NCBI GenBank assembly: GCA_963664395.2
Contig: OY761159.2
Location: 3,520,001 to 3,584,000 of the forward strand
DNA: 64,000 bases
Origin: Candidatus Binatia bacterium
Lineage (GTDB): Bacteria; Desulfobacterota; Binatia; Bin18
Direction: 5' to 3'
The notes beneath the pieces are model-generated. The model was given only the letters and a program-made list of their open reading frames with translations, ran no database searches and was not told where the DNA came from. This document shows, piece after piece, positions 3,483-47,858 of this stretch. Both the position numbers and the translations under genes were made by a program. Position 1 is the first letter of the stretch. Each line of letters begins with the position of its first letter.

Positions 3483-3995
3483 GTGAGCGCACAGATCGTC
3501 GTTCCCATTACGCGCGTGCGCCAGGCTGAACCGGGCGCGCCGTCGATCCCGCTTCCCCGCTATATGACTCCCGGCTCTGCCGGGATGGATATTGCCGCCG
3601 CTCTTACGGAAAGCGTCGTCCTTGCGCCGCTCCAACGGTGTGTGATTCCGACCGGATTCGCCTTGGCCCTGCCGCAGGATTACGAAGCCCAGATTCGCCC
3701 GCGCAGCGGACTCGCGCTGCGCCACGGGCTTACCATCCTGAATGCTCCGGGAACGATAGACGCCGACTATCGGGAAGAGGTGAAGGTCTTACTCATTAAT
3801 CTTGGCGACAAACCGGTTGAGGTCAAACGGGGCGACCGCGTCGCCCAGCTCATCGTCGCTCCAGTGGCACGTGTCTGTTGGGCTGAAGTCGATACGCTCG
3901 GTTCCACGCGACGGCAGGGAGGGTTTGGTCATACGGGGACGGCAGCCTGCGCAGACCAGGACCCGACCGAAAAGAGTAAACGTGTCCTCCAATAG
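3483..3995 (+). CDS. dut: dUTP diphosphatase
   Basis: [33 protein letters not shown] motifs. Confidence 0.96.
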
Positions 3996-4025
3996 ACATC
4001 AGATGCTGGACACGTTTACTCTTTT
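3970..4025. repeat. ~55-bp palindromic MITE-like element, family B (contains the dut stop codon)
   Basis: AAAGAGTAAACGTGTCC...GGACACGTTTACTCTTT inverted arms; related copies at 11325, 11429, 26745, 32395, 60902. Confidence 0.8.
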
Positions 4026-6899: not shown

Positions 6900-7709
6900 A
6901 TGGCATACCGAGAAAACTACGAACATCTTATCATCGAGAAGAACGACGGGATTGCGCTCTTGACGATTAACCGGCCTGAGTCCCTCAACTCGACGAATTT
7001 CCGCCTGCACTATGAACTGAGCAAGGTCTGGCTCGATATTGCAGACGACCCGGCAGTGCGGGTGGCGGTGATTACGGGCGCCGGGCGGGCGTTTTCGGCT
7101 GGCGGAGACTTTGACGTTGTTGAGAGATCAATAGATAACCTCGACGTGGTAGCCCAGACTATGAAAGAAGCCCGGGACATCGTCCACAATATGATCAACT
7201 GCGATAAACCTATTATCTCGGCGATTAACGGCGTTGCGGTCGGGGCAGGGCTGGCGGTCGCCCTGCTGGCCGATATCAGCATTGCCTCGGAGAAGGCGCG
7301 TTTCACTGACGGGCATACCCGGCTCGGGGTTGCCGCCGGAGACCACGCCGCGATTATCTGGCCCCTCCTGGTCGGCATGGCCAAGGCCAAATACTACCTG
7401 CTGACGTGTGACATGCTGGACGCCAAAGAAGCTGAGCGGATTGGTTTAGTCAGCATGGTTGTTCCACCGGACGAACTCATGCCTAAAGCGATGGAAGTGG
7501 CGAACAAATTGGCGACGGGCGCACAGCAAGCTATTCGTTGGACCAAGCAGTCGCTCAACCAGTGGCTTCGTGCGGCAGCGCATACGTCGTTCGATTACTC
7601 GCTCGCCCTGGAGATGTTGGGCTTCTTTGGCAAAGACGTGGGCGAGGGGCTGAGTGCGGTGAAAGAACGTCGCCCCCCGGTTTTTCCATCCGCGCAAGAT
7701 AACACATGA
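6900..7709 (+). CDS. enoyl-CoA hydratase/isomerase family protein
   Basis: [19 protein letters not shown] crotonase motifs; AGGAGG RBS. Confidence 0.92.
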
Positions 7710-7975
7710 CAACTCCGGAACGCATCGAGCACACGCTCCGACACGCGCTGTCCGCAACCGAGGTGCAGGTCGAAGACGAGAGTGCCCTGCACGCGGGTCA
7801 TGCCGGAGCTGCGTCCGGCGGCGGGCACTACCGGGTCACCGTGGTGTCTCCACTGTTTGCCGGCAAGAACCCCGTCCAGCGCCACCGTTTAGTCTACGCT
7901 GCGTTGGCGGAAGAAATGCAGCAGGCGATCCACGCCCTGGCGCTGACAACCCTCACGCCCTCCGAACGCACATAG
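7706..7975 (+). CDS. bolA: BolA family protein
   Basis: DESALHAGH...GGHY...F.GK..VQRHRLVY...IHAL. Confidence 0.93.
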   Translation: MTTPERIEHTLRHALSATEVQVEDESALHAGHAGAASGGGHYRVTVVSPLFAGKNPVQRHRLVYAALAEEMQQAIHALALTTLTPSERT

Positions 7976-18335: not shown

Positions 18336-18357
18336 AAAACCGAGCGTTCGGGGCCGG

Positions 18358-18469
18358 AACCCACCCCGCCGCTGCGCGGCACCCCTCCAGGGAGGGGAGT
18401 TGGAAGGGGCCCGGTTCTGTTTTCTCTATCCCCTCCTCGGAGGGGTGGCCCGAAGGGCCGGGGTGGGTT
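18358..18469. repeat. inverted pair of family A double-hairpin REP-like units
   Basis: AACCCACCCCGCCGCTGCGCGGCACCCCTCCAGGGAGGGG plus a reverse-oriented GGCC variant. Confidence 0.85.
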
Positions 18470-24466: not shown

Positions 24467-24484
24467 CGAGTGCGAGAGGCATAC

Positions 24485-26713
24485 ATGCGGATATGGCAGA
24501 CACGGGAGAGGATGGTATGGACGAGGTGCCGGGCGGTTCTGCTCGCAGGTGTTTTCCTGCTGAGTTCTTTCCTGCCGGGCCTTCCAGCGTCGGGCCGTGC
24601 TCAGACCGCTCCACCGGATCAACTTGATCAACTTGATCAACTTGATCGGATTGATTCCGGTGATCCGGCTGAGGTAACTGACAGTGAGGAAATGACCGAC
24701 AGTGCTGAGGAGTGTGTCCCTGTTGGCGAGACGGAATTCATTGAGTTCAACTTTGAAGGGGCCGACATTCGAGAAGTGATCCAGGGGATGGCCGCCGGGC
24801 TGTGCATTCACTATTCGATTGATCCTCGGGTGCAGGGAACGGTGACCATTCGGACGGCGAGCAAAATCAGTGGCCAGGATCTGTTCCCGCTGTTCCATCA
24901 GATCCTGCGTATCAATGGGATAGCCGCGGTGAAGGCCGGCGAAATCTACCATATTGCTCCGGTTGGAGAGGCAAAAACCAGGGTGCTGCTCATGCAGGAA
25001 AACACCCAGCGGTACGAAGCCTCCGCGCAGGACGAGTTCGTTATTGAACTGGTCAAGGTAGAGCATGTTGCGGTACAGAAAATCGTTGAAATCCTGCAAC
25101 CCTTTGTCTCGCCCGGTGGCGGGGCGGTCGCGTACGCGCGTGGCAATCTGATCATCCTGACGGACCTGGCGTCGAACGTGGTGCGCCTCCGAGACCTGAT
25201 CGCGACTTTTGATACCGATACGTTCCGGGAACTCCGCGCCCAGATATACCGGATTGAGCATGCCAATATCGAAGATATCGGCAAGGAGCTGGCCGCGATC
25301 CTCGAGCCCTACGGTGTGACGGTACAGAACATGGAAGAACGCGGGGTATATATTATTCCGCTCACTCGGCTGGACGCTATCGTCGTCATTGGCTTTAATG
25401 ACGAGATTTTCAGTCAGATTGAGAAATGGATCAAAGTCCTTGACGTCCCACCCGAAAAAGGCGGCAGTCGCGTAGTCCAGGTCTATTCGGTCGAGAATAC
25501 CAAGGCCGCCGACCTGGCCGGGGTGCTGGGTAATTTATACGGCGGCGGCGGAGGCCGAAGCAGCAGCGGGCGTGACCGGAAGAACGAGAATCGCCAGAAT
25601 GAATCGGGGGAGGGGCTGGGCCGCAGCGGTGGGCTCGGGGGGCGAGGGTCACGAGGGGGCGGAACCCAGAGTCTCCTGATCGATCCCAAAGAAGACGAGA
25701 ACCTGATATTCAAGGAAGAAGTCAGAATTGTCGCGGACGAGATCTCGAACTCACTCATTATTCTCGCCACCCCCCGCGATTACGACAGAATCCGGGACGT
25801 GCTGGTCCGCATCGACGTGGTTCCGCGGCAGGTGCTGATTGAAGCCATCATTGCGGAGATAACGCTCAATGACGACTTGCAGTTCGGGCTCGAATACGCC
25901 TTTGCCAGCGGGGGCTTGAAGAACCTGTTCGGCTCCGTAGGAGGGGGCGGCTCAAGTGGCATTGGGGTCGGAGAAGAAGGGGGTCTGAGCATCGGCAATA
26001 GTGCGCTGCTCCAGTCCGGAGCAAAGCGGGCGGTCAATATCGGCAAGAATGGGCTTTTTTCTTTTATCACCGACCAGGAGCATTTTCTGGCCCTGATACA
26101 CGCCGTCCACGCCCGCTCCAAGGTGAATATCCTGGCGACGCCGCATGTGATTGCCGCAGATAATCGTGAGGCGCATATCCTGATCGGTGAAGAGGTGCCG
26201 ATTCTGACCTCCACCCAACAGAGCACCCTGGCCAGCGCGAACATTGTGTCCAGCATCCAATATCGTGATACCGGCACGATCCTGACCATCCTGCCCCAGG
26301 TCAACTCGGCCGGGCTGGTGAATATGGAGATTCGCCAGGAAGTCAGCAACGTCGGGGTGACCTCGTTTGGCGATACCAACTCGCCCAGCTTCACTTCGCG
26401 TGAAACAGAAACAACCGTCGTCGTGCGCGACCGCGAGTCTGTCCTGATTGGCGGCATTATTGACGAACGGGTCGAGCGTTCCCGCAACGGCATTCCTTTT
26501 CTGATGGACGTACCGGTCCTGGGCCGCCTCTTCCGGGTCGAACAGGACAAACGGGAACGGACCGAACTGATCATTCTCATTACGCCCTACGTCATTCGAG
26601 ACCGGAACGAAGCACAAGCTGTGACTCAGGAGTTTACGAATCGGGTCGGCCGACTCCGAAAAATGATTGAAGGCGCCCGCCAGACCCAGCAGCCCGGCGC
26701 CGGCAAGAAGTAG
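24485..26713 (+). CDS. gspD: T2SS secretin
   Basis: FNFEGADIREVI N0 domain, QVLIEAIIAE, PFLMDVPVLG.LF, TELIILITP. Confidence 0.95.
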   Translation: MRIWQTRERMVWTRCRAVLLAGVFLLSSFLPGLPASGRAQTAPPDQLDQLDQLDRIDSGDPAEVTDSEEMTDSAEECVPVGETEFIEFNFEGADIREVIQGMAAGLCIHYSIDPRVQGTVTIRTASKISGQDLFPLFHQILRINGIAAVKAGEIYHIAPVGEAKTRVLLMQENTQRYEASAQDEFVIELVKVEHVAVQKIVEILQPFVSPGGGAVAYARGNLIILTDLASNVVRLRDLIATFDTDTFRELRAQIYRIEHANIEDIGKELAAILEPYGVTVQNMEERGVYIIPLTRLDAIVVIGFNDEIFSQIEKWIKVLDVPPEKGGSRVVQVYSVENTKAADLAGVLGNLYGGGGGRSSSGRDRKNENRQNESGEGLGRSGGLGGRGSRGGGTQSLLIDPKEDENLIFKEEVRIVADEISNSLIILATPRDYDRIRDVLVRIDVVPRQVLIEAIIAEITLNDDLQFGLEYAFASGGLKNLFGSVGGGGSSGIGVGEEGGLSIGNSALLQSGAKRAVNIGKNGLFSFITDQEHFLALIHAVHARSKVNILATPHVIAADNREAHILIGEEVPILTSTQQSTLASANIVSSIQYRDTGTILTILPQVNSAGLVNMEIRQEVSNVGVTSFGDTNSPSFTSRETETTVVVRDRESVLIGGIIDERVERSRNGIPFLMDVPVLGRLFRVEQDKRERTELIILITPYVIRDRNEAQAVTQEFTNRVGRLRKMIEGARQTQQPGAGKK

Positions 26714-26727
26714 AATCAGCCTTACAC

Positions 26728-26921
26728 ATCCCCTCCTTGGAGGGAAAGAGGAAACGTGTCCTCAACAGAGTAGGCAGATGTTGACACGTTTCCTCTTTGT
26801 GCCGCGTGAGCGGCGGGGTGGGTTTCTTCTGGGTTTCTTCTCTGGGGGGAAGCTAAGACAAAAGAGGCAGGGGGCAACCCACCCCGGCCCTTCGGGCCAC
26901 CCCTCCAAGGAGGGGAGCAGA
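26728..26921. repeat. family A REP pair, left unit interrupted by a family B element (26745-26798)
   Basis: TCCCCTCCTTGGAGGG[AAAGAGGAAACGTGTC...GACACGTTTCCTCTTT]GTGCCGCG...GGGGTGGG, then a forward GGCC unit. Confidence 0.85.
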
Positions 26922-26925
26922 GATT

Positions 26926-27315
26926 ATGAAGCGGAAGATCGTGCCGTATAACCCGCGATTGAAGGAACTCGCTCGGCAACTTCGGAAGCAGATGACGCGG
27001 GCGGAGGCTCTGTTGTGGCAACAGCTCAAGGCACGGCAGATGGAGGGCTGTGACTTTGACCGACAGCGCCCTATCGATGAGTATATCGTGGACTTTTTTA
27101 GTAAGGACCTCATGCTGGCCATTGAGATTGATGGAGTAACACACGATACCGAAGCTGGACAGAAAAACGATCAGCGGAGGCAGAAACGCCTGGAAGCTCT
27201 GGGTGTCCGATTTTTGCGCTTTCAGGATGAGGAGGTCAAGCAGAATCTGGAAGGAGTGTTGACGGTCATTCGGGGGTGGATCGGGAAGAATAAACCCACC
27301 CCTCCGAGGAGCTAA
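26926..27315 (+). CDS. DUF559 (Vsr-like PD-(D/E)XK) endonuclease-domain protein
   Basis: ARQLRKQMTRAE.LLW, FDRQ, YIVDF, IEIDG.TH, DQRR...G.RFLRF. Confidence 0.9.
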   Translation: MKRKIVPYNPRLKELARQLRKQMTRAEALLWQQLKARQMEGCDFDRQRPIDEYIVDFFSKDLMLAIEIDGVTHDTEAGQKNDQRRQKRLEALGVRFLRFQDEEVKQNLEGVLTVIRGWIGKNKPTPPRS

Positions 27316-27642
27316 GACAAAGGGGCAACCCACCCCGGCCTACGGCCACCCCTCCAAGGAGGGGAGCAGAACACATCCCCTCTCGGTCAAGGCTCTCACT
27401 ATCACCATAAGTGACATTTTTATCCCCTCCTCGGAGGGGTGGCCCGCAGGGCCGGGGTGGGTTCCTGGCACGCCCTCACGAGGAAACCCACCCCGCCGCT
27501 ACGCGGCACCCCTCCTGGGAGGGGATGGTGAAGGGAGCGCTACGCGGCACCCCTCCTGGGAGGGGATGGTGAAGGGAGCGCTGCGCGGCACCCCCTTCGA
27601 CTGGGCTCAGGACAGGCCCCCAAGAGGGGATGGTGAAGGGGG
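27310..27642. repeat. cluster of family A REP units, including three tandem ~41-bp units and a family C insert
   Basis: Units at 27327(+), 27422(-), 27485(+) and tandem copies; CCTTCGACTGGGCTCAGGACAGG at 27594-27616. Confidence 0.85.
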
Positions 27643-27692
27643 ATGCGGGTGACTGCTTGACAACCGAAACCGGGTTTGAACTAATACGCCAC

Positions 27693-28001
27693 ATGGCCGC
27701 CGCCGAAGACACAAGCTGGGAATACACGTTAGGCCGCATTGATGAGCGGACCGAGAACCTGGAGAAGCGCGTTGATGAACGGTTCGAGAACCTGGAGAAG
27801 CGCATTGATGAACGGTTCGAGAACCTGGAGAAGCGCATTGACGAGCGGTTCGAGCATGTGGAACAGCGTCTTGGACGTGTGGAGTTTGATGTGAAGGGTA
27901 TTCAGAAGACGATTGACGAGAAGATGCTCAACAAGACAACCTTCTTCACGTTTACCAGCGTTGGCGCCGGTCTCCTGGCCGCGATGATCGCGCTGAAGTA
28001 G
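27693..28001 (+). CDS. small coiled-coil protein with C-terminal membrane anchor
   Basis: 11-aa repeat RIDERFENLEK x3-4, hydrophobic C-terminus. Confidence 0.75.
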   Translation: MAAAEDTSWEYTLGRIDERTENLEKRVDERFENLEKRIDERFENLEKRIDERFEHVEQRLGRVEFDVKGIQKTIDEKMLNKTTFFTFTSVGAGLLAAMIALK

Positions 28002-28101
28002 CTGTTGTGAAACACTCCTGACTCAAGCCAACCCCTTTGCTATTGACACCTTTTCCAAGAGTACACTATAGTAATTTCATAATGCGCAAGGCTTTACGGG
28101 A

Positions 28102-28578
28102 GTGGGAAACGAGCACGTGGTGATGGAAAAGTCCGGACGCTACCAGCCAGCCATACGCGGCATCGTGGGGGGAGTTGTCCTAGTAGCAGCCCTGGCCGCA
28201 TTCCTTGGGTCGAGTCAGTCCGAAGCCGGGATTAAACAACGGGCCACGGCGTTCTGGGAAGCCCGTATCCAGGGTGACGACTTGACAGCCTATCAATACG
28301 AAACCTATGCCCACACCGGAGAGCTGACCGCCACGCAATATATCCAGGCCCTGTCGCCGATGCTGAAATACATGGCTTACACCATCGACACCATCCAGGA
28401 GCAGGAAAACGAAGCCTCGGTCACGGTCAATGTGCGATGCCGGATAGACATTCCGGGCATGCTTGACGTGCCCTTATCTATGCCGATAAAGGAGCGTTGG
28501 GTGCGTCTTGACGATAGCCAGTGGTACCGCAACGTCAAACCCGAAAAGCTCGGCAAGGCCGCCCGTCGGCAGGGCTGA
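28102..28578 (+). CDS. exported or membrane-anchored hypothetical protein
   Basis: N-terminal hydrophobic segment; TTGACA-18-TATAGT promoter at 28043-28072. Confidence 0.75.
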   Translation: MGNEHVVMEKSGRYQPAIRGIVGGVVLVAALAAFLGSSQSEAGIKQRATAFWEARIQGDDLTAYQYETYAHTGELTATQYIQALSPMLKYMAYTIDTIQEQENEASVTVNVRCRIDIPGMLDVPLSMPIKERWVRLDDSQWYRNVKPEKLGKAARRQG

Positions 28579-28586
28579 ATGTTTGC

Positions 28587-28615
28587 TTGACAGGGTATGG
28601 GATATTCACTATGGT
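28587..28615 (+). promoter_or_regulatory. near-consensus sigma70 promoter with ~190-nt leader
   Basis: TTGACA-17 bp-TATGGT; AAGGAG RBS before ATG 28810. Confidence 0.7.
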
Positions 28616-28809
28616 GCTCAGCAATCACGCCACACGGGGAAAATCGAAAGGCAATATTGATGTTCGGGCCGGACCGGAAAGGGCCATATGAAGGAGGCGA
28701 GGTATTGGCGAACACTAACGAAAACAAGTCCCCGGTGCCAGGTGGATATATGAGCAACACGACACATAAAACAGAAGAAAGAAGTTTTCAGGAAGAAAGG
28801 AGAGACGTG

Positions 28810-30328
28810 ATGAAGATGAATAAAATGTTTACGGGCCTAATCGCGTTGGTGGCGGGCGTTGCCCTCTCGGCGGGGAGTGCCTTTGCAACCAAGGGTTACT
28901 ACCATAGGTGACCCGGCCAGGATGAAACTGGTCCCTTATTATGAGACCGGAGAGCTCGCTGACCGCGATTGTCAATGTCCAGAACCTGTCGCCGCAAGAG
29001 GCCACTACTGCGGCTCTGCAATGGCTGTTACGGCTGCTCAGGCTGCATTGGATGCTCTTAATGATATGGAGTTGAGCCTGACCATGCAGATACAATGCGG
29101 GCTGATGCTGAGATGGCCCTTGCGGATGCTATGGATGCGCTTTACACCGAACACCTCTTCGTTGTCGTGAATGTCCACGACGCAATGGGTATGATGATGG
29201 AGGATGCGTCAGAGAACTGTGTCTGGCAGAGAACCAGTTCGGATATGTCATTCTCACGGGGTTTGAGATGATGCATGGCGGAGATATCCCCAACCGCAGC
29301 GCTTGGTGCTCTCGATGGGCTGGTGACATCCCCGCATACGGCTATGTGAAGTCATGGCGGAGGGTCAGAAATGGTACGGCTGCGAGGGCCGCCCCGGCGA
29401 CCTGACGGATGGAGGCAGGTTACTGAGCCAGATTGCTGAGTAGCGGATTGTAGGCACTGAGTCCATTTGGCCAGCTCGCCGCCTGGACCATGTCCAGGAC
29501 ACTGGCACTGGTGCTTCTTCGGGACGGAAGTGATCGACCCTGCTCGATGGACCATTCTCCAGGACGTTGGGAGTGGTTTCTTCGGGACGGAATTGCATGC
29601 CCGACTGGCCTGCTATACAATTACAATGATGGCGGATGAGATGCTGAGCCACTCGATGATGCTACTGCCTGCCCGAATGATGCTACCGCTAAGTGTGACC
29701 CAGCAATATGACAATAGGAATCCGACTTCATGATCCGGTGCGGCTTGATTCCCGAACGGCATGATAACAGGGGCGATCTACCAATGCATGCGACGGTACT
29801 GGGACTGACTATGCCGCTGTCTGATGATGCGAGGCAACCACTCCTCGACTCCATGGTCATGCCATCGCCCGGTACGATACTGGGGCTGATGATTCCATGT
29901 CTTTGTGTGGTTGGCAACAGGCCACGACGATGAGGATGCCCCATGCGAGCGATGTCCCGGCCCGCTTGCGTAATCGTGATGCGAAGACGGGACGATGGCA
30001 TGATTCCAGGGGACCATGTATCGCCGGGTGATGATGGCCCATCGCAAGTCCCCGCCCCGACCATAAGGTCACCATGATAGACCCGATGGTGATGCTGGGT
30101 CATGTACACCGACATGTGATGCGGGCGACCGCGGTGTGCTGCGAATCACGATGCCGGATGGCAGCCACGCCGGCATGGTGTGGACCCATATCTCTCAGAT
30201 GAATGGAACAACTTCCGCATGAACTTCCCTGGGTACAACATGGCCAATCCGATGCCTGATGAGATGGGTGTTGCTGACGTGAGGCTGATGGAAACTGAGG
30301 TGGCTGCGGCCGCCTGCATGGCCCGTAA
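28810..30328 (+). pseudogene. multiply frameshifted secreted protein (~500 aa), candidate S-layer protein
   Basis: Sec signal MKMNKMFTGLIALVAGVALSAGSAFA; protein-like fragments continue across frames (KLVPYYETG, AQAALDAL, ENQFGYVIL); strong terminator after TAA. Confidence 0.6.
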
Positions 30329-30391
30329 CTCATCGTAACACGGCTCTAACAGAAGGAGGCAAGGGTTTCGGCCCTTGCCTCCTTTTTTTGT
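30326..30391 (+). terminator. ~67-bp stop+terminator repeat, copy 1
   Basis: TAAC...AACACGGCTC...GGAGGCAAGGG-TTTCGG-CCCTTGCCTCC-T7. Confidence 0.85.
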
Positions 30392-30430
30392 GTGTGATTG
30401 TCGGGCAGGACGAGGAGAAGGGGGTATGCG

Positions 30431-30529
30431 ATGACCGGCTATGAAGAACCGGCCATGCGTGCGGCCCTGGCCCTGGAAGCGGCCAACCAATCCAATTGGG
30501 CAGAGATTGCCGGCGTCATGCTCATATAA
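30431..30529 (+). pseudogene. truncated small membrane-protein gene
   Basis: MTGYEEPAMRAALALEAANQSNWAEIAGVMLI* resembles the N-terminus of the 32007 protein (AALQALVAPNWVDIGG); ends at a repeat boundary. Confidence 0.4.
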
Positions 30530-30671
30530 ACTCCCCCCCCCCCCAGATATTTTCGATTAAAAGGCAGATAGATTCTCCATCCCCTCTTGGGAGGGGTGCC
30601 GCGTAGCACCTGTCCTGAGCCGAGTCGAAGCCTGTCCTGAGCCCTAGTCGAAGGGGGGCGGGGTGGGTTTC
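30528..30671. repeat. shared linker + family A REP with two tandem family C inserts
   Basis: AACTCCCC...CAGATAT.TTCGATTAAAAGGCAGATAGATT also at 31743; CCTGTCCTGAGCC...GTCGAAG x2 at 30609-30654. Confidence 0.8.
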
Positions 30672-30781
30672 GTCATCTCGCACCACCGGGCTGTCTTCAC
30701 GTAAGCCCTCTAGCCCTTGACGCTGTTTTGTGCTCTGCTCTATTCTCAAATGCACAGAAGGAGAAAGGGAGGACGTACCGT

Positions 30782-31006
30782 ATGACCCGTAAACGACCTG
30801 ATGGCACGACGGAAGGAATGCGGGCGCTCAGTGTGTCGGAGGGGAGGGGTGAAGCAGAAGCAAAAAAAATAGGGCGGAAGGCCCCTGTGGATTCCACGGA
30901 AGACGATTACGATTACATGATTGGGCAGGCGTGCGTTCGGGATTTGAAAGCTGGGCGCACCCACATCGTTCCTGACGAAGAATGGTTGCTGCGATTGATG
31001 AGCTGA
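30782..31006 (+). CDS. putative antitoxin
   Basis: Small protein with acidic EDDYD...LKAGRTHIVPDEE tail, overlaps a RelE-like gene; TTGACG-18-TATTCT promoter. Confidence 0.55.
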   Translation: MTRKRPDGTTEGMRALSVSEGRGEAEAKKIGRKAPVDSTEDDYDYMIGQACVRDLKAGRTHIVPDEEWLLRLMS

Positions 31007-31176
31007 AGTCTCCTGACGTGAGTCATAAGAAGGTGAAGAAGCTCAAAGGGCGGAAGAAGGGAGAACCACCGATCTACCGAGTCCGTGCTGGAAATTATCG
31101 GGCGTTGTACACGGTTGATGAGAATGATGGCGTGACCATCCTGCATATCCGTCACAGAAGCGACGCCTACAAGTAG
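30982..31176 (+). CDS. RelE/ParE-family toxin, N-terminally short
   Basis: VKKLKG...YRVRAGNYRALY...ILHIRHRSDAY. Confidence 0.8.
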   Translation: MVAAIDELKSPDVSHKKVKKLKGRKKGEPPIYRVRAGNYRALYTVDENDGVTILHIRHRSDAYK

Positions 31177-31182
31177 AATACC

Positions 31183-31209
31183 AAAAGCCCGGTCACATGG
31201 CCGGGCTTT
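31183..31209 (+). terminator. intrinsic terminator
   Basis: AAAGCCCGG-TCACATGG-CCGGGCTTT. Confidence 0.7.
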
Positions 31210-31252
31210 CTATCTCCACCACCTCCCATGGGCTAGGGTGGGCAGAAGCTAC

Positions 31253-31320
31253 TAACATCACCCCTAACACGGCTCAGACACACGGAGGCAAGGGTTGCGG
31301 CCCTTACCTCCTTTTTTTGT
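31253..31320 (+). terminator. ~67-bp stop+terminator repeat, copy 2
   Basis: TAACATCACCCCTAACACGGCTCAGACACACGGAGGCAAGGGTTGCGGCCCTTACCTCC-T7. Confidence 0.85.
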
Positions 31321-31422
31321 CCGCGATCAGACGCGTATTTTGCTGGCAATAAAGACTTGGTGGCGGAGGAGAAATGAAAAAGCCCGGCTGATTGGCCGGG
31401 CTACAATGTTCGCAATGCCTGT

Positions 31423-31662
31423 CTACTCTGGTAGAAACTTTGCCGCCAGGGCGCCGAGAGAGAGCAACAAGGCTATCACGCTCACAAAAACACTGTTCTT
31501 GCCTTTGGTCGCCTCGTGTTTCGCCTCTTCCACTTCTGCTTTCGTCGCAATATGAGGGAGGGTCGCTTCTATTTTGGCAAGGCTCACTTTTATATCAGTG
31601 ACATCCGCCTTCATTTCATGGATGTCTGTTTCTATCCGCTGAAGGCGTTCATCTGTCTCCAT
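31423..31662 (-). CDS. small coiled-coil protein with C-terminal TM helix
   Basis: ERLQRIETDI...ATKAEV, hydrophobic tail; AGGGAAGAG RBS; hairpin terminator at 31377-31402. Confidence 0.75.
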   Translation of the reverse strand: METDERLQRIETDIHEMKADVTDIKVSLAKIEATLPHIATKAEVEEAKHEATKGKNSVFVSVIALLLSLGALAAKFLPE

Positions 31663-31742
31663 GATCTCTTCCCTCTATCACATTATTCATCCGCATACCT
31701 TATAATACATAAACTATTGTGCAAGAACCTGCTATGCGGTCC

Positions 31743-31981
31743 AACTCCCCCCAGATATCTTCGATTAAAAGGCAGATAGATTCCCCATCCCCTCTTTGTG
31801 CCGCGTAGGGGCGGGGTGGGTTTCGTAGTTTCGCCGCGCTGCCCGAACGAAGAGGGAACCCACCCCGGCCTGCGGCCACCCCTCCAAGGAGGGGAGTATC
31901 CACCCCGGCCTGCGGCCACCCCTCCAAGGAGGGGAGCTGGAGGGTCTTGGCTTTGTGTTCTGCCGGGCGAGTTGGTAGGGT
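31743..31981. repeat. linker + family A REP units + repeated promoter segment
   Basis: Reverse unit 31786, forward units 31857 and 31899, then TTGTGT-17-TAGGGT shared with 32564-32592. Confidence 0.8.
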
Positions 31982-32006
31982 GAGCGTCAAGGGTTGGGAG
32001 GGAACT

Positions 32007-32243
32007 ATCAACAATCTTACATTCTCGCCGGAAGCGGTTGCGGCTCTGCAAGCGCTGGTCGCCCCGAACTGGGTGGACATCGGGGGGCTTATCATCGGGC
32101 TGGCGCAATGTGGCTTGATTTATTACGGCCTGAGACTAATGAACCTGGGGTCCGCGGAACGCACAGCGCAACTCACGGCCCAGCACGAAGAAGCCATGAC
32201 GGCCCTCAAGGAACTCATCCACCGGACCACTTCTCGTCCATAA
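32007..32243 (+). CDS. small single-TM hypothetical protein (ATC at the expected start)
   Basis: GGAGGG RBS then ATC; NWVDIGGLIIGLAQCGLIYYGL TM, HEEAMTALKELI coiled tail. Confidence 0.55.
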   Translation: MNNLTFSPEAVAALQALVAPNWVDIGGLIIGLAQCGLIYYGLRLMNLGSAERTAQLTAQHEEAMTALKELIHRTTSRP

Positions 32244-32301
32244 ACGCCAGACACCCGCCGAATCCCCTGCGGTTATAGCCCTTCTTATCGACGATTGGGT
32301 G

Positions 32302-32369
32302 TAACATCACCCAGAACACGACTCAGACAGCAGAAGACAAGGGTTTCGGCCCTTGCCTTCTTTTTTTGT
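32302..32369 (+). terminator. ~67-bp stop+terminator repeat, copy 3
   Basis: TAACATCACCCAGAACACGACTCAGACAGCAGAAGACAAGGGTTTCGGCCCTTGCCTTC-T7. Confidence 0.85.
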
Positions 32370-32377
32370 CCTGAACA

Positions 32378-32592
32378 ATCCCCTCTTGGGAGGGAAAGAG
32401 GAAACGTGTCCTTAATAGAGCAGGTAGATGTTGACACGTTTCCTCTTTGTGCCGCGTAGCGGCGGGGTGGGTTTCGTAGTCTCGCCGTGCTGCGCTGGCC
32501 GAACAGGAACCCACCCCGGCCTTCGGCCACCCCTCCAAGGAGGGGAGCTGGAGGGTCTTGGCTTTGCGTTTTGCCGGGCGAGTTGGTAGGCT
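32378..32592. repeat. family A REP pair with family B insert (32395-32448) + promoter segment
   Basis: Same composite as 26728-26826; TTGCGT-17-TAGGCT ends 9 nt before ATG 32602. Confidence 0.85.
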
Positions 32593-32601
32593 GGGTGCCC
32601 T

Positions 32602-33109
32602 ATGGCGAGCGCAACATTTGATACCTTACACGCGGCCAAGGCGCTGACGGCGGCGGGCTTTGAGGCACAGCAAGCCGAGGCAATCACGGACACGATCCGA
32701 GAGGCGTTTACCGAGAGTGTAGCCACCAAGGCCGATATCGCCGGCCTGGAAGCAGCCGTAACCGCAGATATCGCCGAGGTCAAGGCGGAGTTGAAGGCCG
32801 ATATCGCCGGCCTGGAAGCAGCCGTAACCGCAGATATCGCCGAGGAAGGCGGAGTTGAAGGCCGATATTGCTGAGGTAAGGACGGAAATCGCCGAGGTGA
32901 AGGCCGAGTTGAAGGCAGATATCGCCGAGGTGAAGGCGGAGTTGAAGGCCGATATTGCCGAGGTAAGGACGGAAATCGCCGAGGTGAAGACGGAAATCGC
33001 CGAGTTGAAGGCCGAATTGAAAGCCGACATCGCGGGCATATACAAGCAGCTCTGGCTGGTAGCGCTGGGCATCGTGACGGCAGTCGCGGCGATTGTGAAA
33101 CTGTTGTAA
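32602..33109 (+). CDS. DUF1640/CCDC90-like coiled-coil membrane protein, copy 1 (frameshift ~32846)
   Basis: FDTLHAAKALTAAGF..QQAEAI head, ATKADI neck, ADIAEVKAELK repeats, TM anchor. Confidence 0.8.
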
Positions 33110-47683: not shown

Positions 47684-47739
47684 GAGGGGATGTGTTCTGC
47701 TCCCCTCCTTGGAGGGGTGGCCGTAGGCCGGGGTGGGTT
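47684..47739 (-). repeat. family A REP unit identical to 27327-27382
   Basis: 56-bp exact inverted match, including the flank CAGAACACATCCCCTC. Confidence 0.85.
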
Positions 47740-47858
47740 CCTTAGGACAGGTGCATGTTGACTGTTTGGCGGTGGCTCTGGTAAATGTGGATACTGTGGA
47801 AAGATGGAAAAGTCGTATGTGGCAAGAGCGTGTATCACCGAGGGGTGAGGGGGAGAAA

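Follow-up and report, generated by a model that had tools for sequence, protein, structure and literature searches.

Why does a gene for a small predicted nuclease lie in the middle of the densest cluster of a short palindromic repeat in its genome? The question arises from a window of 64,000 nucleotides (nt) of a Candidatus Binatia bacterium, meaning the whole stretch that was analysed (C1:3520001-3584000 of a 5.04-Mb assembly with 57% G+C), in which a DUF559 gene is surrounded by copies of a unit, here called REP-A, that resembles repetitive extragenic palindromic (REP) elements. A sequence-only reading of the window had taken this for a system akin to that of REP elements and their REP-associated tyrosine transposases (RAYTs), with a different nuclease in place of the transposase. 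On the comparisons set out below, the best explanation is that the locus would be a resident, rearranged copy of a compact selfish cassette, composed of a gene for a nuclease of ~125 amino acids (aa) and of inverted, structured G/C-rich ends.

The REP-A unit is ~42 nt long and, read 5′ to 3′ on its C-rich strand, consists of a box AACCCACCCC (also given as ACCCACCCC), a first hairpin (hairpin 1), a single A and the palindrome CCCCTCC-NN-GGAGGGG. On the G-rich strand the same unit is a hairpin of a C arm and a G arm (CCCCTCC-NN-GGAGGGG), followed by a short loop, in whose place this lineage has hairpin 1, and by a G box, GGGGTGG, which mirrors the G arm. A strict regular expression finds 41 units in the genome, nine of them in the window, and an nhmmer profile built from these 41 yields 103 at E<=0.01; 98 of these are almost complete in length, and 11 fall in the window. 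Six more copies in the window, interrupted or truncated, were read by eye (26728-26826, ~27291-27312, 27579-27640, 30580-30669, 31787-31824 and 32378-32474), in agreement with the earlier estimate of about 15 copies. The reversed pattern, used as a control, has 0 hits across 41 genomes. The DUF559 locus is indeed the densest 1-kb cluster of the genome, as had been claimed, with five units against four and three in the next two and at most two in all others; the units nearest to the start of the gene lie 52, 399 and 497 nt from it.

Hairpin 1 comes in the two variants already recognised in the sequence-only reading, the GGCC type in 49 and the GCCGC type in 37 of the 103 units (17 are unclassified). 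That reading had also named four head-to-head pairs in the window, each with one unit of either type, and this description is correct for the four; the regular form across the genome is instead the tail-to-tail doublet, a tight composite found as 19 pairs, 16 of which have a gap of 9-12 nt, and heterotypic in 16 of the 17 pairs that can be classified (binomial p 1e-4). Head-to-head pairs number eight, with gaps from 0 to 146 nt. An alternation of two unit types is also a feature of bacterial interspersed mosaic elements (BIMEs), which these heterotypic doublets resemble, and the gene-less copies in this genus as a whole (singlets, heterotypic tail-to-tail doublets and alternating arrays) look like REP, BIME and REPIN elements. 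As single-stranded DNA (ssDNA), single units fold into the two expected hairpins (-10.6 and -11.4 kcal/mol), and inverted pairs fold into long stems (z -3.9 and -5.8). A candidate view of single units as exceptional ssDNA hairpins was rejected at z values of only -1.6 and -3.0 (-0.5 for the short cyanobacterial form), and folding energy alone does not mark them. The possibility of a G-quadruplex on the G-rich strand, considered for several of the clade spellings described below, was not relied on, since the spelling in this genome has one run of two Gs. No Rfam family reaches its gathering score within 25500-33000, and the repeat is therefore not a described RNA family.

At the locus itself (Table 1), the DUF559 open reading frame (ORF) starts 212 nt downstream of a GspD-type secretin gene (24470-26713). 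The two direct repeats that had been noted around the gene (26851-26921 and 27310-27370) are borne out, in that each is made of one unit plus shared flank and contains stretches of 19 and 27 nt that are 100% identical; the first copy stops 5 nt short of the start codon. The final residues of the protein are encoded by a truncated unit, and in the orthologues described below a complete unit makes up the 3′ end of the ORF. It had further been suggested that the repeat supplies the ribosome-binding site. Here a GGGGAG in the upstream unit does lie 8 nt before the ATG; the arrangement is not conserved, and most orthologues have an AGGAG-like word in the spacer after the unit, not within it. About 100 nt upstream of the gene, an unrelated 54-nt palindrome (26745-26798) sits between the palindrome and hairpin 1 of a minus-strand unit, and the cassette probably had this split unit as its original left end, since displaced. 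Downstream, unit 27483-27525 is followed by two identical 41-nt tandem copies of its 3′ two-thirds (27497-27537 and 27538-27578) and by a third, degenerate copy (27579-27640). The 54-nt palindrome has a perfect stem (AAAGAGGAAACG...CGTTTCCTCTTT) and is found at 13 places in the genome, among them 3971-4024, 26745-26798 and 32395-32448 of the window; two of the 13 lie inside REP-A units, precisely where the palindrome borders on hairpin 1, a nested form that also exists in relatives.

The product of the gene is a clear member of its family (PF04480, 106.9 bits against a cut-off of 20.6; E 6.3e-31 over profile positions 3-104 of 109), and of 7 candidates scored across the 5.04-Mb genome it is the sole one to match PF04480. 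By modelling, the protein has a Vsr-type restriction-endonuclease-like fold and is a predicted endonuclease. More specifically, its sequence matches that of a Neisseria DUF559 structure (PDB 3hrl) with E 1.2e-18, and Foldseek relates the AlphaFold2 model (pLDDT 87.9) to 3hrl with TMt 0.91, to the catalytic domain of I-Bth0305I (3r3p) with 0.79-0.80 and, more weakly, to Vsr (1vsr, rank 7, probability 0.92). In a 2012 survey Vsr, DUF559 and DUF2726 share one PD-(D/E)XK clade (PMC3424549), and I-Bth0305I is described as a stable dimeric homing nuclease that nicks or cuts a pseudopalindromic site (PMC3239194). Residues D56, E67, D69 and H73, to which catalytic roles can be attributed by homology only, are invariant in 48 sequences of the subfamily and align with the stretch of 3r3p that holds its mutated active-site positions. 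Together with a median dN/dS of 0.097 (45 pairs from 10 orthologues), the sequence comparisons show that the nuclease gene is intact, conserved and under purifying selection.

Whether gene and repeat belong together can be asked of the relatives within Candidatus Binatia, for which 40 genomes were searched and orthologues were defined by at least 70% identity. Orthologues are found at 10 places in eight of the 40, and at each of the 10 there are 2-17 units in the 1.5 kb to either side; the distant DUF559 loci of the same genomes (<=47% identity) carry REP-A units at 0 of 19. An enrichment of the repeat at the DUF559 gene, on which the sequence-only reading had staked its proposal beforehand, was looked for here and in relatives and is thus present. 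Every place has a unit whose end lies no more than a few tens of nt ahead of the ATG, and at most of them a unit encodes the C-terminal tail. With the window included there are 11 places: six share one site, bordered by the secretin gene and by a conserved gene downstream of it, another three share a second site unrelated to the first, and two are rearranged. At the site after the secretin gene, gene and cluster are both present in six genomes, and five genus genomes without an orthologue have no unit in the region after that gene. The gene in the window is oriented opposite to the five others at this site, which an inversion between flanking inverted units would explain; among the predicted targets of inversions in a 2023 survey, 'DUF559 domain-containing protein' is one of the enriched families, with an odds ratio of 14.3 (PMC9881135).

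Copy numbers were compared across 41 genomes by a strict pattern, with which this genome has 69 copies. The eight genus genomes with the gene hold 12-168 copies each, and one genome of another family that has the gene (G025) holds 23. Genus genomes without the gene are of two kinds, six in which the repeat is present (25-66 copies) and 11 in which it is rare or absent (0-6), and the 15 more distant genomes have none. The difference in copy number between genus genomes with and without the gene gives a Mann-Whitney p of 1.5e-4, a value that is overstated because kin are not independent.

A RAYT acting on the same repeat would be the most familiar kind of mobiliser, and it was rejected: the three RAYT-like places of this genome (one PF01797 match and three NF047646 matches) lie at least 36 kb from any REP-A unit, and none of 30 RAYT-like loci in relatives is flanked by the motif, save for one 20-nt partial match, so that the flanked RAYT for which the sequence-only reading had left room was sought and did not appear. 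The single PF01797 match of this genome (24.2 bits) is a 223-aa ORF with HUH and Y motifs, which scores 59.5 bits for the RAYT family against a cut-off of 80 and has hairpins of the GTAG type inside and beside it. This best RAYT-like gene (L002:1393-2064, minus strand, on G000:C1) lies ~400 kb upstream of the window, and it falls below the family cut-off because it contains an in-frame proline-rich insert encoded by GTAG-type hairpin repeats. Hairpins of the form GTAGGGGC...GCCCC number ~47 genome-wide. In three genus genomes without a DUF559 orthologue (G001, G004 and G006), a RAYT-like gene stands beside the same secretin gene, and the one in G001 lies in arrays of a different repeat (of the ...GGGAGCGCGGCCATCTTGGCCGC... 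type), through which its open frame continues. The intergenic site downstream of the secretin gene is hence one that either kind of repeat-plus-enzyme system uses.

A scan of one genome per species gave 262 stretches that encode relatives of the protein, of which the best 78 loci (56-86% identity) were used; those from outside Binatia come mainly from Cyanobacteria and Bacteroidota, and also from Ignavibacteriota, Victivallales and others. A unit lies within 150 nt upstream of the gene or between -60 and +100 of its stop codon in 72 of the 78 loci, on both sides in 45, and in two there is none. The usual layout is an inverted pair with the ACCCACCCC boxes toward the gene, in which the left unit ends 5-30 nt before the ATG and the right unit begins at the final codons or inside them; several loci use the TAA linker of the motif as their stop codon. 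Outside this lineage hairpin 1 is mostly replaced by a linker of 2-4 nt. The upstream and downstream flanks match each other with at least 30 bits in 50 of 70 loci, and the highest score among 61 control pairs taken 1.25-1.5 kb away is 22.3 bits. When copies from separate sites in one genome are compared, the similarity is confined to -67/-54 to +9/+37 around the gene (479 nt at 86% and 463 nt at 87% identity); what is inherited as a unit is therefore a discrete cassette of ~460-480 bp. Terminal inverted repeats and sharp shared ends are thus found in the cassettes of relatives, and the arrangement is modified in the window; it is the discrete form with inverted repeats at its termini that is ancestral. 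The 14 cassette ends that were read show no target-site duplication, nor does the cassette hold a transposase of known class, the DUF559 ORF being its only one.

Such a cassette bears on two other accounts of the gene. It might be a host guardian, that is, a domesticated Vsr-like nickase that repairs lesions at hairpin or triplex repeats and so limits their spread. The Vsr family is indeed described as one of repair nickases (PMC3239194, PMC3424549), motifs of the triplex kind are reported in connection with genomic instability (PMC4666352), and in this genus the gene is single-copy, sits mostly at one inherited site and has the low dN/dS given above. A guardian, however, has no need of motifs that frame it at fixed distances or of a stop codon inside the motif, nor of a discrete multi-copy unit of ~470 bp at unrelated sites with a patchy distribution across phyla, and on balance this account is unlikely.

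Alternatively, the gene might be a parasite of the homing type, copied by break repair into inverted motif pairs that were already there, while the repeats spread by other means or by recombination and slippage. The kinship in fold and sequence with the EDxHD homing nuclease I-Bth0305I speaks for this, as does the position of the gene exactly between two motif copies in a world where the repeats also occur without it; moreover, between the arms of one doublet the relative G012 has a different ORF and its close relative G018 has nothing. In an alignment of these two (L034 and L035, columns 7256-7816), G012 carries ~500 nt with a small signal-peptide-like ORF between tail-to-tail doublet arms that form a bare doublet in G018; the other indels between the two genomes measure 34-1457 nt and have their ends inside units, and one of them adds exactly one array period. 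Whole-genome motif counts, however, tell against pre-existing targets. A Cyclobacteriaceae genome (G042) has two motifs, which are exactly the two cassette ends, and in G045 (Fulvivirga) two of the three motifs are near the gene, so that the gene would seem to carry the motif along rather than to find it. Since, in addition, the spelling of the motif co-varies with the clade of the protein across many lineages (see below), we consider a homing parasite of this kind quite unlikely. The same counts are 17 in Leptolyngbya PCC 6406, 65 in Leptothoe and 125 in Anabaena azotica, with 0 hits for reversed-pattern controls in all five genomes; with a range from 2 to 125, gene-less units must have proliferated more than once.

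Co-occurrence was also assessed in a blind sample of 301 genomes of the cyanobacterial phylum, in which the exact motif is present in nine, a gene of the subfamily (at least 52% identity, E<=1.6e-37) in seven and both in six (both, gene alone, motif alone and neither: 6/1/3/291; Fisher p 5.9e-10); some DUF559 gene at E<=1e-15 is present in 137 of the 301. Units stand at the gene in six of the seven subfamily loci. The partnership of a repeat with a nuclease other than an HUH enzyme is in this respect supported as first proposed, and what has to be given up is the idea that it is private to this genome, for the same motif and subfamily span phyla.

A further step leads away from the subfamily. 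Small DUF559 genes at 35-49% identity are likewise framed by inverted repeats, of the same architecture in another spelling: a C-rich arm, a loop, the complementary G-rich arm, a linker of 2-4 nt (often TTA or TAA) and a G-rich box. Box and G arm mirror each other in every clade, A standing opposite A or T, and the ORFs again tend to end within the right-hand repeat. In 31 of 39 loci a finder for this generic architecture places at least one motif no farther than 200 nt from the DUF559 domain, at a density of 77 motifs per 28.9 kb near the gene versus 29 per 97.2 kb elsewhere; the eight loci without a motif comprise seven DUF559 domains in proteins of 495-790 aa and one 64-aa remnant. That the spelling of the motif changes with the clade of the protein speaks most strongly for a direct recognition of the motif by the protein. 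In L018, L026 and L133 (relatives and a cyanobacterium), DUF559 domains occur in open frames of 310 to ~1270 aa with triplex-type motifs on both sides, which fits in-frame insertion of cassettes into larger genes.

The architecture is not new in itself. By this criterion, the motif in the window can be placed in the published class of BoxC, PIT or 'intrastrand triplex motif' repeats. One such motif, TM_ECO, is defined as CCCTCNCCC-N3-6-GGGNGAGGG-N3-GGGNGAGGG and is reported 3610 times in 262 proteobacterial genomes (Holder et al. 2015, PMC4666352). The same report describes it as abundant in some Enterobacteria and Cyanobacteria, lists many G/C-rich motifs for Microcystis, Anabaena and Nostoc, links the motif to rearrangements as well as to instability, and states that its authors found no transposase or integrase remnants near TM_ECO sites (PMC4666352). 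The exact TM_ECO pattern frames the genes of one DUF559 clade, which this genus shares with cyanobacteria. The loops in the published ITxF search are of 1-6 nt and loop 2 of TM_ECO is of 3 nt (PMC4666352), and the motif of the window lies outside these limits because its loop 2 is a hairpin or inserted DNA; the cyanobacterial and Bacteroidota relatives, with their linker of 2-4 nt, follow the short-loop rule, and this genome does not. In Escherichia coli K-12, the stop codon of the DUF559 gene ycjD (L146:6040-6840) is in the loop of a degenerate hairpin, and past the gene there are a partial duplicate of its 3′ end and a BoxC/TM_ECO copy within ~190 nt; upstream of ycjD no motif was found in this region.

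These data can also be set against the view that the association is passive, with another function moving the units, which pile up at the gene by chance, by target preference or at a hot spot, and with the nuclease doing an unrelated job. The site downstream of the secretin gene does hold RAYT genes in G001, G004 and G006 as well as another repeat family, the window is rich in the repeat overall (11 of 103 units in 1.3% of the genome), and the gene drew attention to begin with because it lies inside the cluster. A passive pile-up, however, does not lead one to expect linkage across phyla, in AT-rich genomes, at many unrelated sites and in several clades each with its own spelling, or a complete lack of REP-A units at the 19 distant DUF559 loci of the same genomes, and it is an improbable account that we would hardly bet on.

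Across the loci, gene and motif are linked, the linkage is specific, the ends are discrete, copies stand at several sites, spelling follows clade, and rearrangements are bounded by units. Binding, cleavage and any mechanism of copying we infer from these patterns, and with somewhat better than even confidence we favour the reading that the nuclease is the cognate enzyme of the motif, acts at it and would drive the spread and rearrangement of both the cassette and its gene-less copies. Specifically, the nuclease would recognise the motif, as sequence or in a folded form, and nick or cut there; repair and recombination at the breaks would copy the cassette and the gene-less units, and would also cause local inversions, deletions and the growth of arrays. 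The cassette would then be a minimal selfish element, with gene-less units, doublets and arrays as its non-autonomous progeny. The enzyme might read the duplex palindrome as a dimer, or else a hairpin or a folded triplex; copying might proceed by homing-like repair, by transposition or by recombination only, and the gene is possibly domesticated by now in this genus. A broader proposal is possible though on the doubtful side, namely that small DUF559 genes with structured inverted ends might form an unrecognised class of autonomous mobile elements of ~0.5 kb, with a Vsr-like nuclease as their sole protein and hairpin- or triplex-forming DNA as their ends, whose gene-less progeny would be the BoxC/PIT/triplex-motif (TM) repeats of E. 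coli, of cyanobacteria and of many further bacteria, as well as the REP-like arrays of this genome.

Several observations weigh against the favoured reading. The gene in the window is framed by two units on the same strand and not by the canonical inverted pair. Six of the 11 genus places are one inherited site and so not independent, and the site after the secretin gene may do no more than collect repeats. Six genus genomes with 25-66 copies hold the repeat but no orthologue, and three of the nine motif-bearing cyanobacterial genomes lack a gene of the subfamily. Neither a clean pair of filled and empty sites nor a target-site duplication was found when the F6-F9 intergenic region was compared with five relatives and G018 was aligned with G012 over 13 kb. 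Indels between close genomes begin and end inside units or bring extra flank, which fits recombination as well as transposition. To our knowledge, Vsr-like nucleases have no strand-transfer chemistry and none moves DNA.

Table 1. Positions of the DUF559 gene and REP-A units in the window, and of RAYT-like genes in genus genomes (last three lines, given by locus or contig).
Feature	Position	Strand	Evidence or remarks
DUF559 / Vsr-like (EDxHD-type) endonuclease gene (predicted)	26926..27315	+	129 aa; Pfam DUF559
REP-A unit, GCCGC-type hairpin 1	26728..26826	-	inverted-repeat listing; partial profile hits 26799-26826 and 26729-26744
Direct-repeat copy 1, including GGCC-type REP-A unit 26874-26916	26851..26921	+	45.4 bits; two hairpins as ssDNA, -10.6 kcal/mol
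Truncated REP-A unit, box fused to palindrome, without hairpin 1	27291..27312	+	direct repeat 27294-27320 and inverted repeats
Direct-repeat copy 2, including GGCC-type REP-A unit 27325-27365	27310..27370	+	38.6 bits; decayed inverted partner next to it
REP-A unit, GGCC-type, head-to-head with next unit	27423..27466	-	44.4 bits; pair folds at -41.3 kcal/mol, z -5.8
REP-A unit 27483-27525, GCCGC-type, with partial tandem copies	27483..27640	+	direct-repeat listing, profile search
Tail-to-tail heterotypic REP-A pair, 30-nt gap	18356..18469	18356-18398 +, 18429-18469 -	fold -37.7 kcal/mol, z -3.9
REP-A unit, long insertion at hairpin-1 position	30580..30669	-	read by eye; partial hit 30580-30607
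Deleted (-) unit 31787-31824, (+) unit 31855-31895, tandem partial (+) unit 31900-31935	31787..31935	mixed	profile and read by eye
(-) unit 32378-32474 split by the same 54-nt palindrome as 26728..26826, facing (+) unit 32505-32546	32378..32546	mixed	profile and read by eye
REP-A unit with decayed partner	47701..47742	-	regular expression and profile
RAYT-like gene	L145:3825-5003 (G001)	-	96.5 bits NCBIfam REP-associated tyrosine transposase; 42.7 Pfam Y1_Tnp
RAYT-like gene	G004:C3:982061-982381		beside secretin gene
RAYT-like gene	G006:C1:2912250-2912588		beside secretin gene

Other features stand among the units of the window. Just past the cluster, a 123-aa ORF (27630-28001, plus strand) has three tandem 11-residue repeats of the ERFENLEKRID type and a hydrophobic tail; its Pfam hits are no more than weak and coiled-coil-like, and it is kept beside the cluster in relatives. 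Farther on, between REP-A units, a 64-aa ORF (30982-31176, plus strand) has a match to Pfam ParE_toxin that is limited to the C-terminal half (E 5e-9, profile 45-89 of 89) and overlaps the end of a 92-aa ORF without a family match (30728-31006, plus strand), and by sequence the two look like a truncated type II toxin-antitoxin pair. Duplications of ~55-60 nt beyond the units accompany REP-A copies here (30540-30600 with 31750-31810, and 31936-31990 with 32546-32600); the stretch at 30.5-32.6 kb grew by segmental duplication.

Catalogues of BoxC, PIT and triplex-motif repeats go back to the 1990s; such repeats are abundant from E. coli to cyanobacteria, and we know of no enzyme for them. In a search of the full-text literature, no publication came up that connects DUF559 or Vsr-like nucleases with REP, BoxC or triplex repeats; supplements, including the tables of PMC4666352, were outside this search. 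Peculiar to the present lineage is a motif with a hairpin in its second loop that has grown into BIME-like heterotypic doublets. If the favoured reading is true, the BoxC/PIT class of repeats gains an origin and a testable mechanism, and REP elements with their RAYTs are joined by a second, chemically different case of a nuclease that lives with its own population of repeats. A role would also be assigned to a very large family labelled as a 'domain of unknown function'; E. coli YcjD is among its members, so that the idea can be tested in a model organism, and the clade-specific spellings would constitute a natural set of matched protein-DNA pairs for studies on the recognition of structured DNA.

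How, then, does the system compare with those already known? With REP, BIME and REPIN elements and their RAYTs (as described in PMC2817692, PMC3116915 and PMC3733652) it shares a short, GC-rich palindromic repeat, with 103 units here that form inverted doublets and alternating arrays of two unit types, and one gene per genome that lies in repeat clusters and is inherited mostly vertically within the genus. It differs in that the gene encodes a predicted Vsr-like nuclease of the PD-(D/E)XK type and not an HUH (Y1, IS200-like) transposase, and in that the unit consensus lacks the GTAG or CGTC tag described at one end of REP repeats (PMC3733652), GTAG hairpins being a separate family here. Other repeats accompany the RAYT-like genes of this genome and its relatives, and outside the genus the DUF559 gene and its two ends form a discrete, multi-copy cassette that is scattered across phyla. 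With the EDxHD homing endonucleases such as I-Bth0305I, itself a selfish dimeric nuclease that acts on a symmetric site, and with Vsr, the protein has in common its catalytic fold and the conserved acidic and histidine residues; unlike the homing endonucleases, it has no intron or intein and no separate DNA-binding domain, and its gene is bounded by its own inverted repeats, whose gene-less copies multiply. Insertion sequences and miniature inverted-repeat transposable elements (MITEs) offer a parallel in their terminal inverted repeats, sharp ends, several copies and gene-less derivatives built from the ends; the differences are that no DDE, HUH, serine or tyrosine recombinase is present, that no target-site duplication was found, and that a cassette of ~460-480 bp is small for an autonomous element. 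Closest in the DNA itself is the BoxC/PIT/intrastrand triplex motif, with which the unit shares the order of C arm, loop, G arm, short loop and a G box that mirrors the G arm; the arms here, CCCCTCC, GGAGGGG and GGGGTGG, obey this arm-and-mirror rule in a spelling of their own with arms of 7 nt, whereas loop 2 is either a hairpin of 11-14 nt plus 1-2 nt or 54-60 nt of inserted DNA, and the partner gene is the new element.

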